A stretch of 64,000 bases of DNA from sequence record MZ291552.2; one strand, written 5' to 3'. Under the pieces are notes generated by a model. The model had not been told where the DNA came from. It made no database searches and saw nothing but the letters and a program-made list of their open reading frames with translations. Made by a program: the position numbers and the translations under genes. The DNA is from Escherichia phage vB_EcoM-UFV09. Below, one piece after another: positions 34,915-40,448 of this stretch; position 1 is the first letter of the stretch; every line of letters begins with the position of its first letter.

Positions 34915-37179
34915 TCATAATTTACAGGATGAACAATCTTCAGCTTTAGGAGTTTCTATTTCATAATCATCAGTACCAGAACCATCACGGGTATTATGAT
35001 AATAGAAATTTTTAATGCCATAATACCATCCGTATAGCATGTCATCAATCATTATTGACATTGGAACCTTTCCTTTTGGAAAAATCTGTGGGTCATAATA
35101 TGTATTCGCTGAAGCTGATTGACATACCCATTTCAGCATAATAGCTACCTGCGTAAGATAAGGTTTATTACCTTTCTTAGCTAATTTCCATGTATAATCA
35201 TAGAGGTCTATGTTATGCTCAATATTGGGCACGACTTGATTAAAGGAACCCTCTTTTGATTCTTTAACAGAGACTGGTCCACGTGGAGGCTCGATACCGT
35301 TTGTACTGTTAGAAACTTGGGAAGATGACTCACATGGCATAAGTGCTGATAATGTGCTATTACGGATGCCAAAGAGCTTAAGGTCTTCCCGCAGCGACGA
35401 CCAGTCACAAACGTATTTTGGAGCTGCGATTTGGTCAATCTTTTTATTGTACCAGTCGATAGGTAATTCGCCTCGAGACCAACGAGTGTCTGAATAATAT
35501 TCACAAGGTCCTTTTTCTTTGGCGAGCTTAATGGATGCTTTAATGAGTCCATACTGTAATCTCTCAAATAGTTCATGTGTTAAATCGTTAGCATCTTCAT
35601 AAGAAGCAAAGTTACTTGCCAGCCAAGCTGCATAGTTAGTAACACCTACACCGAGGTTACGACGCTTTTTAGCTTTTTCTGCTTCAGGAACTGGATATCC
35701 TTGGTAATCCAAAAGATTATCAAGAGCACGAACTTGGACTTCTGCCAATTCATTAATTTTATCTTGGTCTTGCCAATCGAAGTTATCCAGCACAAATGCA
35801 GATAACGTGCACAATCCAATTTCAGCATCAGGACTATTCACATCATTTGTTGGAATAGCAATTTCACAACACAAGTTACTCTGACGAATAGGTGCCTTTT
35901 CACGAATAAACGGAGTATAGTTATTCGTATTATCAATGAACTGTACATAAATCCTTGCTGTTCCTGAACGTTCAGTCATGAGCAATTCAAATAGTTCACG
36001 GGCTTTAATACGCTTTTTACGAATATTAGGGTCTTTTTCTGCTGCTTCGTATAATTCACGGAAACGGTCTTGGTCTTTAAAATAAGAATAATAAAGCTCT
36101 CCACCCATTTCATGCGGACTGAACAAAGTAATGTAATCGTTCTTTCCAAAACGTTCCATCATCAAATCATTCAGCTGGACGCCATAATCCATATGACGGA
36201 TACGGTTTTCTTCTACACCTTTGTTATTTTTCAAAACGAGAAGATTTTCAACTTCCAAATGCCAAATAGGATAATAAGCAGTAGCAGCGCCGCCCCGAAT
36301 TCCACCTTGTGAGCATGATTTAACAGCAGTCTGAAAATGTTTCCAAAAAGGAATAACACCAGTATGGCGTACTTCACCCATGCCAATCTTAGAACCTTCG
36401 GCACGAATCATACCAACGTTAATACCAATTCCAGCACGTTTGGAGATATATTCAACAATTGAAGCGGAAGCCTTATTGATAGACTTTAATGAATCACCTG
36501 CCTCAATAACAACACATGAACTAAACTGTCGAGTCGGAGTACGACAACCAGCCATAATAGGAGTTGGTAATGAAATCTGTCGAGTAGATACTGCTTCATA
36601 AAAATGAATAACATGTTTTAATCTATCAACAGGTTCATCTTGATGCAATGCCATTCCAATAGTCATAAATGCAAACTGAGGAGTTTCATAAATTTGACCA
36701 GTGGTTTTATCTTTAACTAGATATTTTTCTTTTAATTGCATCGCCCCGGAATAAGTAAATTCCATATCCCGCTCGTGCTTAATTTTTGATTCTAAAAATG
36801 TAATTTCTTCTGCTGAATATTTTGACAATAATTCAGGGTCATATTTACCTGCATTTACACAATAAGAAATATGGTCAATAAATGAACGCGGTTCATACTG
36901 CCCATAAACATGCTTACGAAGAGCGAACATTAGACAACGTGCAGCTACATATTGATAATCAGGCTCTTCAACCGAAATAGAATTCGCAGCGGCCTTAATG
37001 ACAATAGTCTGAATATCATCAGTTGTCATTCCATCACGGAGATAAGATTTAATATTTTCATATAATTCATAAGGATCGACTGATGTTCCTTCAGCTGCCC
37101 AAGATAAAACTTTAATAATTTTTTGTGGGTCAAAGCTCTGAGAAACACCACTACTTTTGATAACATTAATTAATTGCAT
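34915..37179 (-). CDS. nrdA: Ribonucleotide reductase large subunit
   Basis: 754-aa ORF with class Ia RNR motifs. Confidence 0.95.
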   Translation of the reverse strand: MQLINVIKSSGVSQSFDPQKIIKVLSWAAEGTSVDPYELYENIKSYLRDGMTTDDIQTIVIKAAANSISVEEPDYQYVAARCLMFALRKHVYGQYEPRSFIDHISYCVNAGKYDPELLSKYSAEEITFLESKIKHERDMEFTYSGAMQLKEKYLVKDKTTGQIYETPQFAFMTIGMALHQDEPVDRLKHVIHFYEAVSTRQISLPTPIMAGCRTPTRQFSSCVVIEAGDSLKSINKASASIVEYISKRAGIGINVGMIRAEGSKIGMGEVRHTGVIPFWKHFQTAVKSCSQGGIRGGAATAYYPIWHLEVENLLVLKNNKGVEENRIRHMDYGVQLNDLMMERFGKNDYITLFSPHEMGGELYYSYFKDQDRFRELYEAAEKDPNIRKKRIKARELFELLMTERSGTARIYVQFIDNTNNYTPFIREKAPIRQSNLCCEIAIPTNDVNSPDAEIGLCTLSAFVLDNFDWQDQDKINELAEVQVRALDNLLDYQGYPVPEAEKAKKRRNLGVGVTNYAAWLASNFASYEDANDLTHELFERLQYGLIKASIKLAKEKGPCEYYSDTRWSRGELPIDWYNKKIDQIAAPKYVCDWSSLREDLKLFGIRNSTLSALMPCESSSQVSNSTNGIEPPRGPVSVKESKEGSFNQVVPNIEHNIDLYDYTWKLAKKGNKPYLTQVAIMLKWVCQSASANTYYDPQIFPKGKVPMSIMIDDMLYGWYYGIKNFYYHNTRDGSGTDDYEIETPKAEDCSSCKL

Positions 37180-37496
37180 AAGTCCTCAACTTGAAAATCG
37201 TCTTTAAACAATCGGTTAACTATATGAGCTATTATATCACCATGACACGGCTTTGGTTTACATGTGCATCCTAGCCTCATTCCACGTAAAGGCTCTAAAT
37301 GTGCTTTAGTTATTTCTCCGGATTTAATTCGACGTATAAAATCTTTTTTGAATAATTCAATGGCAGCCTCCCGGCTGCCAGCATCTTTACCGACGTAATT
37401 TCCCCAAAATGTACCACGGTGAATATTAACATCAAAGTCGGATTTATATTTATTCACTACCCGGCATAGACGGCCCGCGCGGTTGTAGGTGTTCAT
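37170..37496 (-). CDS. nrdA.1: Hypothetical protein nrdA.1 (CxC...CHGD motif)
   Basis: 108-aa ORF; start overlaps the nrdA.2 3' end by 47 nt. Confidence 0.6.
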
Positions 37497-37713
37497 ATTG
37501 TTCTTCCGTTAAAACAGTAATATCGTAGTAACAGTCAGAAGAAGTTTTAACTGTGGAAATTTTATTATCAAAATACTCACGAGTCATTTTATGAGTATAA
37601 TATTTTTTGCCATAAATGATAATAGGCTGATTTGGTCCTGGAACTTCTAACTCACTTGGATTAGGAAGTGTAAAAAGAACGGCACCAGAAGTATCTTTAA
37701 ATCGTAAAATCAT
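37450..37713 (-). CDS. nrdA.2: Hypothetical protein nrdA.2
   Basis: Internal ATG chosen; track ORF extends to 37725. Confidence 0.55.
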
Positions 37714-37736
37714 ATATCCTCTCAATTAAATTAAAA

Positions 37737-38597
37737 TTATACCGCCATCTTTCCTTTAATTGACGGATGAGATACATAGTTATTAAGAACAAAATTATGA
37801 GGCTTTGCAAATTGACTCAACCAAAATACCTGCGATTCTGTGTCCCATTCATCAAATTCATCTGGAAATTTTAATTGTAATTCGCATAAATCCATAGGTT
37901 CACGGCGTAAAATTTCTTTACATTGTTCTACGTGATTCATATAGATATGAGTATTACCACCAGAAAATATCAAATCTCCAGGAATAAGATTACACATTTT
38001 AGCTACAATATGAACTAACGTAGCATATGATGCAATATTAAATGGAAGACCGAGGAAAACATCTACCGAACGTTGATACCACTGCAAATCCAAATAGCCA
38101 TTACGCACATTAAACTGATAGAACATATGACAAGGCGGTAATGCCATATATTTAAGTTCAGCTGGATTCCATGCAGAAACAATTTGACGCCTATCATTTG
38201 GCAGTTTTTTAATACGATCAATAACTTCTATAATTTGGTCTACACCGCCAAAATCACGCCACTGTTTTCCATAAATTGGACCAAGTTCACCACTATGGTA
38301 TCCTAAATCTTTTGCTTGATTTTCGTAATTTTCATCCCAGACTGTTTTGCCTTGAATTAATGAATCATGTTGAATTAATCGTAAATCATTGACATTTGTG
38401 CTTCCTGATAAAAACCATATTAGCTCAGCAATGCATGCATTCCAGGCGAGCTTTTTAGTTGTTACTGCAGGAAAGCCTTTAGTTAAATCCCAACGCAATT
38501 TAGTACCGAACAGAGCAATTGTTCCTGTGCCCGTTCGGTCATCGGTTTCATAGCCATTTTCAAAAATGTCTTTAATTAAATCTTGGTATTGTTTCAT
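37737..38597 (-). CDS. td: Thymidylate synthase, uninterrupted (no intron)
   Basis: Continuous 286-aa ORF with the TS active-site region (ALPPCH). Confidence 0.95.
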   Translation of the reverse strand: MKQYQDLIKDIFENGYETDDRTGTGTIALFGTKLRWDLTKGFPAVTTKKLAWNACIAELIWFLSGSTNVNDLRLIQHDSLIQGKTVWDENYENQAKDLGYHSGELGPIYGKQWRDFGGVDQIIEVIDRIKKLPNDRRQIVSAWNPAELKYMALPPCHMFYQFNVRNGYLDLQWYQRSVDVFLGLPFNIASYATLVHIVAKMCNLIPGDLIFSGGNTHIYMNHVEQCKEILRREPMDLCELQLKFPDEFDEWDTESQVFWLSQFAKPHNFVLNNYVSHPSIKGKMAV

Positions 38598-38642
38598 TTA
38601 GTACCTTATATAAATTATAATACATTTTATGAAGCTAAATAA

Positions 38643-38990
38643 TCAATACGGTTTAGCATCAAATTTTCTCTCAATTTCAGGCGTGAAATATAATTCTTTA
38701 CCGCGTTTGGAAAAGCGACCAATAATATGATAATTATTCTCATCAAACGTGATATTACCAATATCCATAGCTTTCAACCAAATATCGATATTTCTATCCA
38801 GCTTTATGTCAAAATTCCAATATGGAGAACTATTACCGAAAATACTGCAAGCGGATTCAGTGAAACAACTGCTATAAATCTTGTCTTTAGGAACTACTAA
38901 TTGATAGACACCTTTAATAAACTGAGGACCCTGCCACTTTGGCTGTTTCTCGTCTTTTTCTAATAGAATAGGGTAATAATTAAAATTCAT
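38643..38990 (-). CDS. Hypothetical protein (115 aa) between frd and td
   Basis: ORF filling a 413-bp gap between frd stop and td start; no recognisable motif. Confidence 0.6.
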   Translation of the reverse strand: MNFNYYPILLEKDEKQPKWQGPQFIKGVYQLVVPKDKIYSSCFTESACSIFGNSSPYWNFDIKLDRNIDIWLKAMDIGNITFDENNYHIIGRFSKRGKELYFTPEIERKFDAKPY

Positions 38991-39009
38991 ATTTCCGCCA
39001 CGCGTTATT

Positions 39010-39835
<826 letters not shown>

Positions 39836-39839
<4 letters not shown>

Positions 39840-40195
39840 ATTACCTCCCATTGAAAAGAGTCATGAGCATATCCGCTAGCGTCAATCATTTTAACTAAAG
39901 TTACCATTCCTCTGTTAACTGCTTGTGCGATTTCATCAAAAACTTCATCACTATCATCGTAAAGATCATTAAAAAGTTCTAACACGTTCTTCTGAACTTT
40001 TAATTTACGGCCGACAATTTCCCCTACAGTAAATTCGTTTCCGCCAAATCCAGCGTAAAATGTAATTACACCCATTAACTGGCTTTCACGGGAATCTATG
40101 TCGTGTGATAAATTAATAAAAGCCGTCCCAGGCGCGGTTTTAAGTTGGCAACGAATTTTTACTTGGGTAATTCCAGTTATATGAATGTTAGACAT
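39836..40195 (-). CDS. frd.2: Hypothetical protein frd.2
   Basis: 119-aa ORF. Confidence 0.65.
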
Positions 40196-40205
40196 AATAT
40201 TTTCC

Positions 40206-40448
40206 TCAGACAGACTTTTTCACAATTTTCCAATCAGCTTTAAACTGATCAACATCAGAATGATAAATCCAGAATCCTGCGCTTTCTCCATCTTCATAAA
40301 GAGGACATCCATCGCATTCATCTTCCCATCCCATATCACGTAAAAGATGTTCAGCTTTTTCAATGAGTTCAGAATCTTTACCGATGATATTAAAATACCA
40401 TTTACCTCTAACTTCCGAATCTTTGATGCTCTGGCGTTGTAATCTCAT
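40206..40448 (-). CDS. frd.3: Hypothetical protein frd.3
   Basis: 80-aa ORF with early promoter immediately upstream. Confidence 0.65.
   Translation of the reverse strand: MRLQRQSIKDSEVRGKWYFNIIGKDSELIEKAEHLLRDMGWEDECDGCPLYEDGESAGFWIYHSDVDQFKADWKIVKKSV

Follow-up and report, generated by a model that had tools for sequence, protein, structure and literature searches.

We find that Escherichia phage vB_EcoM-UFV09 (sequence record MZ291552.2) carries, between the dihydrofolate reductase gene frd and the thymidylate synthase gene td, an open reading frame (ORF) of 115 amino acids that phage T4 lacks. We conclude with good confidence that this ORF is a genuine, non-essential and strongly constrained gene, ancestral at the frd-td junction of the T4-like (Tevenvirinae) phages, and that the junction of T4 is derived from the ancestral one by deletion. 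A caution follows for the annotation of T-even genomes, as T4, their reference, is atypical at this very junction. Because T4 is without the ORF, a conserved and strongly selected gene has been left with no T4 name, no genetics and scattered wrong labels in GenBank. Throughout the text, the window is the whole stretch of 64,000 nucleotides that was analysed.

A real and constrained gene between frd and td

The window comes from a Tequatrovirus, in which frd, the ORF, td, nrdA.2, nrdA.1 and nrdA all run on the minus strand (Table 1). The frd stop codon is TGA (39012-39010), and the encoded Frd shares 89% amino acid identity with that of T4. An earlier note, made from the letters of this DNA alone, had described an extra ORF within a 413-bp gap between frd and td and had stated that in T4 the two genes overlap as ATGA. 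The ORF is there, in an interval that measures 412 bp (38598-39009), and the statement on T4 is correct: in NC_000866 frd spans 145109-145690 and td ends at 145112, a 4-bp overlap, with no ORF between the two. No terminator was found within the frd-td interval of the window. Ahead of the ORF start, the short frd-ORF spacer holds a weak Shine-Dalgarno-like run, GGCGGA. This spacer is kept in T2, RB32, N2 and Bas43 save for one G/C substitution in RB32 and a single-base difference in the length of an A-run, which sets the window and Bas43 apart from T2, RB32 and N2.

Downstream of td, nrdA.2 and nrdA.1 overlap by 47 nt in different frames (37450-37496), and they are annotated likewise in T4 and its relatives. 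On the other side of the locus, two more small ORFs lie on the minus strand between the frd.1 homologue and frd; T2 has one of the two, and the frd.1-frd interval is a 71-bp gap in T4 and a 3-bp gap in RB69. Given these gaps and their fused frd-td junctions, T4 and RB69 are thus without small ORFs on either side of frd. The td gene is intronless in the window and is split in T4 by a group I intron with I-TevI. N2, Lutter, Isf-Pm2 and NBG2 carry both the 115-aa ORF and the td intron/endonuclease, and the two polymorphisms are therefore unlinked.

Table 1. Features around frd and td in the window, with the tandem paralogues found at the same junction in other loci
Feature	Coordinates	Strand	Remarks
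frd.1 homologue	40206-40448	-	DUF5417
119-aa ORF, upstream side of frd	39836-40195	-	DUF7247, PHROG 3566
85-aa ORF, upstream side of frd	39594-39851	-	PHROG 3183
frd, dihydrofolate reductase, 194 aa	39010-39594	-	Pfam DHFR_1, E 4.4e-18
Direct repeat copy 1, TAAATGAAA	39008-39016	-	last frd codon and frd stop; sequence read
frd-ORF spacer	38991-39009	-	19 bp; 38991-39007 is the part outside repeat copy 1
ORF, 115 aa plus stop	38643-38990	-	RB32ORF229c family / PHROG 1928
ORF-td spacer, 45 bp	38598-38642	-	nearly invariant
Direct repeat copy 2, TAAATGAAA	38592-38600	-	spans the td start codon; 416 bp from copy 1
td, thymidylate synthase, 286 aa, intronless	37737-38597	-	Pfam Thymidylat_synt, E 4.3e-94, profile positions 1-266 of 266
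nrdA.2	37450-37725	-	DUF5496
nrdA.1	37170-37496	-	DUF4326
nrdA	34915-37179	-	
Tandem paralogues (locus coordinates)	L004 2326-2685; L007 2287-2634; L008 2314-2688; L006 1559-1993; L015 3332-3673		

The ORF is a hypothetical gene that databases already list, RB32ORF229c / PHROG 1928, and it sits where this gene normally does. Its protein matches the profile of PHROG 1928 with an E-value of 3.1e-36 (residues 4-111 against profile positions 2-125 of 126), a family whose function the database gives as unknown, and tblastn finds the ORF in 581 phage records, 362 of them at 90% amino acid identity or more, including T2, T6, RB5, RB32 and RB68. Hundreds of phage genomes have the gene annotated already. 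Under the name of a hypothetical protein the gene is known from T2, T6, RB5, RB14, RB32, RB33, RB51, RB68, Bas43 and others. The 2.1 kb around the ORF are 100% identical to vB_EcoM-UFV05, UFV06, UFV10 and UFV11; with RB32 and RB33 the identity is 96%. A family HMM detects no paralogue elsewhere in the 64-kb window, and at every homologue locus inspected a family member lies directly downstream of frd and upstream of td. A literature search by locus tag, accession, PHROG identifier and phrases found no paper on the gene, and Petrov et al. 2010 do not discuss it (PMC2993671). The product names given in GenBank conflict, ranging over putative homing endonuclease, putative prohead core scaffold protein, reductase, putative dihydrofolate reductase and putative glucose-1-phosphate adenylyltransferase; all five are unsupported by the present analyses.

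Nei-Gojobori estimates from pairwise comparison with five phages (T2, RB32, N2, BASEL Bas43 and the Mosigvirus Shf125875) give the ORF a dN/dS of 0.01-0.21 at a dS of 0.05-0.99, a low ratio, from which it follows that purifying selection acts on the ORF no less strongly than on frd. Its dS resembles that of its neighbours, both between the window and T2 (ORF 0.26, frd 0.31, td 0.26) and among Tequatroviruses (0.05-0.33, similar to frd and td), and therefore the ORF is as old as its flanks and has not spread recently. A recent sweep, which would appear as a near-identical element between diverged flanks, was rejected on the same figures. That the ORF merely arose by chance in a non-coding spacer would agree with the absence of a known domain and with the weak Shine-Dalgarno sequence, but such an origin is next to impossible: the selection analysis, with dN/dS this low over dS values of up to 0.99, effectively refutes it, the frame and the length are kept across genera at 26-47% identity, and the AlphaFold2 fold described below is confident and reproducible.

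The direct repeat and the direction of the event

On either side of the ORF stands a perfect copy of TAAATGAAA, the two copies being 416 bp apart. The fused junction of T4 keeps a single copy and lacks exactly the 416 bp between the copies, and in silico removal of these 416 bp reproduces the T4 junction sequence. The 9-bp repeat was observed before, since the GenBank record of RB32 already notes for RB32ORF229c that it is "flanked by 9 bp repeat". Only 35 records (T4 isolates, RB55, RB59 and a few relatives) have the T4-type fused junction, about 9% of Tequatrovirus-type records (35 versus about 350). Two conserved coding ends supply the 9-mer, VYK-stop at the C-terminus of frd and MKQ at the start of td, and it recurs for this reason. 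By itself the repeat would suit a deletion as well as an insertion that duplicated its target; it is the distribution of the gene that separates the two.

Homologues of the ORF are found directly downstream of frd in Kanagawavirus, Jiaodavirus, Roskildevirus, Moonvirus, Winklervirus and Muldoonvirus, and also at the same junction in two metagenomic T4-like contigs. The synteny comparison suggested at the outset thus finds the family at the frd-td junction of at least six other T4-like genera. Across genera the identity is 26-47% for the ORF, 37-56% for frd and 69-80% for td, and that of the ORF declines with distance roughly like that of frd. Four genera, Kanagawa-, Moon-, Winkler- and Roskildevirus, have at the junction a second ORF that hhalign identifies as a tandem paralogue from the same family (probability 99.1%, E 1e-18); in a metagenomic contig (L015) the paralogue was recognised by eye, from shared motifs. 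A third junction ORF, of 69-70 aa (MSNKLKVKDVP...), recurs in loci L009 and L015.

The simplest reading of this distribution is that an ancestral gene was lost by T4 (35 records) and by RB69-type Mosigviruses (135 records). T4 probably represents a microhomology-mediated deletion of the ancestral gene, which reverses the direction of the event assumed in the earlier note. A deletion of 416 bp between the TAAATGAAA copies would have taken out both the ORF and its downstream spacer and would have recreated an ATGA overlap, now directly between frd and td. In most other genera the start of the ORF homologue lies across the end of frd, an arrangement that suggests translational coupling and often takes the form of ATGA. 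As ATGA is seen in several genera, the coupling motif would be ancestral, and T4 would have re-formed it. The ORF had at first been taken for accessory or mobile cargo. The idea of an inserted or mobile element is not supported, as the family keeps the same junction in six other genera, has a dS like that of its flanks and shows no nuclease or mobility motif; accessory the gene is only in the loose sense that it is non-essential and variably present.

Under the opposite polarity, mobile cargo, for example a free-standing gene resembling a homing endonuclease, would have been inserted at an ATGA junction like that of T4 and RB69, duplicating a 9-bp target, TAAATGAAA. Such an insertion would explain the perfect direct repeat around the ORF, its patchy presence within Tequatrovirus and Mosigvirus, and a fused junction common to two lineages with very different frd genes, and the BASEL and ValerieMcCarty04 records do label the product 'putative homing endonuclease'. 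We nevertheless consider it very unlikely. No recognisable nuclease catalytic motif or domain (GIY-YIG, HNH, LAGLIDADG, PD-(D/E)XK or EDxHD) was found in the ORF, nor did the window protein and 28 family members give another Pfam, NCBIfam or PDB match, the members, when scanned individually against Pfam, returning only scattered hits to non-nuclease families at E 0.045 or worse. With its 115 aa the protein is shorter than the seg and mob endonucleases; six other genera have homologues, tandem paralogues included, at this very junction; its dS is like that of the flanks and not near zero, as expected after recent spread; and the 9-mer recurs for coding reasons. Petrov et al. 2010 (PMC2993671) count one homing endonuclease gene in T2, apparently under HNH in a flattened table, and give none for RB26; T2 carries the ORF, which was so evidently not counted among such genes there. 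The homing-endonuclease label is without support in sequence, fold or population pattern.

What, then, of the Mosigviruses? The frd/td junction is fused in RB69 and in 134 further Mosigvirus-type records too, and it contains the 9-mer known from T4, TAAATGAAA (RB69 locus L013, 5384-5392); RB69 Frd is only 58% identical to that of the window. A copy of the ORF with 90-95% identity is present in about 14 records, among them the inspected Mosigviruses, Shf125875 and its relatives. Shf125875 (locus L010, 894-2722), the one analysed in detail among the ORF-carrying Mosigviruses, combines a Tequatrovirus-like frd (94%) with a native td, which shares 96% identity with RB69 and 80% with the window, and so carries a recombinant block. 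In the same phage a 2-nt A-run difference just before the frd stop (L010, 1501-1511) shifts the frame, and the annotated frd continues 11 nt into the ORF. Because the 9-mer is built of the conserved frd end and td start, a second, independent deletion in the Mosigvirus line is plausible. Insertion of the ORF into an already fused ancestor of Tequatrovirus and Mosigvirus deserves very little credence.

The spacer ahead of td

The ORF-td spacer is invariant in five Tequatroviruses in which neighbouring synonymous sites differ by 5-33%, and is so constrained. A 48-bp query made of the spacer and the ORF stop codon (38598-38645) found 344 records, 215 of them with 100% identity and 342 with 95% or more (1-2 differences). 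The Mosigvirus Shf125875 is without 32 bp of the spacer. An Rfam search and RNA folding of the spacer yielded no family and no significant fold.

The earlier note had pointed to a promoter-like sequence in front of td and, as far as the motifs go, it was right, as a MotA-like box and -10-like elements are present. The MotA box of T4 has the consensus (a/t)(a/t)(a/t)TGCTTtA, centred near -30. In the spacer we find a MotA-box-like TAGCTTCA at 38630-38637; in the longer ATTTAGCTTCA (38630-38640) the GCTT core is kept and an A replaces T at the first box position. Downstream of the box, where a MotA promoter has its -10 element TAnnnT at 11-13 bp, TAATTT (38612-38617) lies at 12 bp, and a perfect TATAAT (38614-38619) lies at 10 bp. 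A sigma-70-like TTGATT-18-TATTAT was flagged in the spacer as well, and the annotation of the Lutter record places a predicted promoter here. The relaxed MotA-box/-10 pattern, matched at 38612-38637, is unenriched in the window (20 found versus 14.3 +/- 3.8 expected), and any start site at a promoter in the spacer would give td a leader of only about 9-13 nt. A candidate MotA promoter before td is plausible on these motifs; the conservation of the spacer could equally reflect the translation-initiation region of td, which has its Shine-Dalgarno AAGG at 38604-38607. As to late transcription, TATAAATG at the frd end was rejected as a late promoter, matching the consensus TATAAATA at only 7 of 8 positions.

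The spacer provides td in the window with a ribosome-binding site of its own and possibly with an internal promoter, both absent in T4. Given that T4 is without the Shine-Dalgarno of the spacer, td translation in T4 must start within the frd end.

The product and its possible role

The product of the ORF is a small, single-domain, beta-rich, mildly basic and aromatic-rich protein without catalytic motifs. That it holds no recognisable motif had been noted from the translation, and the searches agree: no sequence match was obtained from Pfam, NCBIfam, PADLOC or the PDB, for Pfam and NCBIfam not even at E up to 1-10, and phmmer and family-profile searches of the PDB returned nothing relevant. 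An exhaustive HMMER scan of 1.8 billion representatives gave only 19 clusters, of 95-116 aa save for one 838-aa match (E 5e-4) that was treated as spurious, its best stretch covering query residues 50-90 only, and word-indexed homology searches recovered only proteins of T4-like contigs and phages. The residues conserved in the alignments are Q16, W19, G27, Y29, G78-N79, G91, F93, K95, G97, F102 and P104, and the motifs QKKW, HG(I/V)Y, GN(I/V) and IGRFxKxGxxxxFxP recur in the family; W, G, F, K and P stand among the conserved residues in place of an acidic/histidine catalytic set. Members of the family are mostly mildly basic (pI mostly 7.7-9.5), and aromatic residues make up 17% of the window protein; both features bear only indirectly on a possible binding of ssDNA, RNA or oligosaccharide.

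AlphaFold2 was run twice, on 9 and on 29 sequences, and reached a pLDDT of 75 and 81 and a pTM of 0.72 and 0.75; both models have the same topology, with strands at 8-12, 27-34 and 62-64, a helix at 68-76 and strands at 80-82, 86-96 and 99-104. A Foldseek search of the PDB with the model gave nothing significant. Structural matches in BFVD are confined to uncharacterised proteins of T4-like phages and Aeromonas phage proteins; they include a 144-aa Cronus protein, equal in length to the upstream junction paralogue.

What might such a protein do? The ORF lies inside the frd-td-nrdA nucleotide-precursor block, and so its gene would presumably be co-expressed with those genes. The product may act by binding, not by catalysis, either on nucleic acid, in the manner of OB-fold domains such as S1, RPA, Teb1, HIN and SSB, or with a partner in nucleotide synthesis. 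We put forward tentatively that it is a binding module of this kind, an OB-like nucleic-acid binder or a partner of a nucleotide-precursor enzyme, made together with the products of frd, td and nrdA. To go further and see in the family an unrecognised component or regulator of the T-even deoxynucleotide-synthesis module, for example an OB-like adaptor tethering Frd/Td (dNTP synthetase complex) to DNA, RNA or gp32, or a translational regulator of td, is a proposal that we regard as quite unlikely to hold. Were the protein to act with Frd/Td or on nucleic acid, it would be a new component of the classic T-even nucleotide-precursor module.

The main functional rival is a factor for host takeover or anti-defence that has no part in nucleotide metabolism; its position at the junction would then be inherited synteny only. 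We hold it to be unlikely, if worth keeping in mind. As such a factor might be, the protein is small and confined to phages, and no homologue of known function was found; T4 and RB69 dispense with it, and the frd.3-td interval varies in its content of small ORFs between relatives. Arms-race genes, however, are generally expected to evolve fast and turn over, and a dN/dS as low as that of the ORF, together with its retention across genera, speaks to some degree against this role. PADLOC, whose library consists of defence and not anti-defence proteins, gave no match, and no literature tying the ORF to any defence system was found.

Regardless of function, the ORF is dispensable under laboratory conditions, because T4 and RB69 lack it. 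T4 genetics would have missed the ORF, since T4 deleted it, and its absence from the model phage explains why a strongly conserved T-even gene adjoining frd and td has gone unstudied.

Compared with T4 (NC_000866), the window has the same flanking frd and td, and the junctions are identical once the 416 bp are removed; T4 lacks the ORF, the td-proximal spacer and the Shine-Dalgarno that the spacer holds, and has in td the intron with I-TevI that is absent from the window. RB32ORF229c / PHROG 1928 is the same gene as the window ORF, with 97-100% amino acid identity; both have the frd-td position, the flanking 9-bp repeat and the downstream spacer, and no difference between them was found. With the seg, mob and hef homing endonuclease genes of T-even phages the ORF has in common that they are small ORFs between conserved genes, variably present in close relatives. 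Unlike these, it carries no nuclease motif, its dS is ordinary, it has tandem paralogues, and its one locus is deeply conserved across genera.
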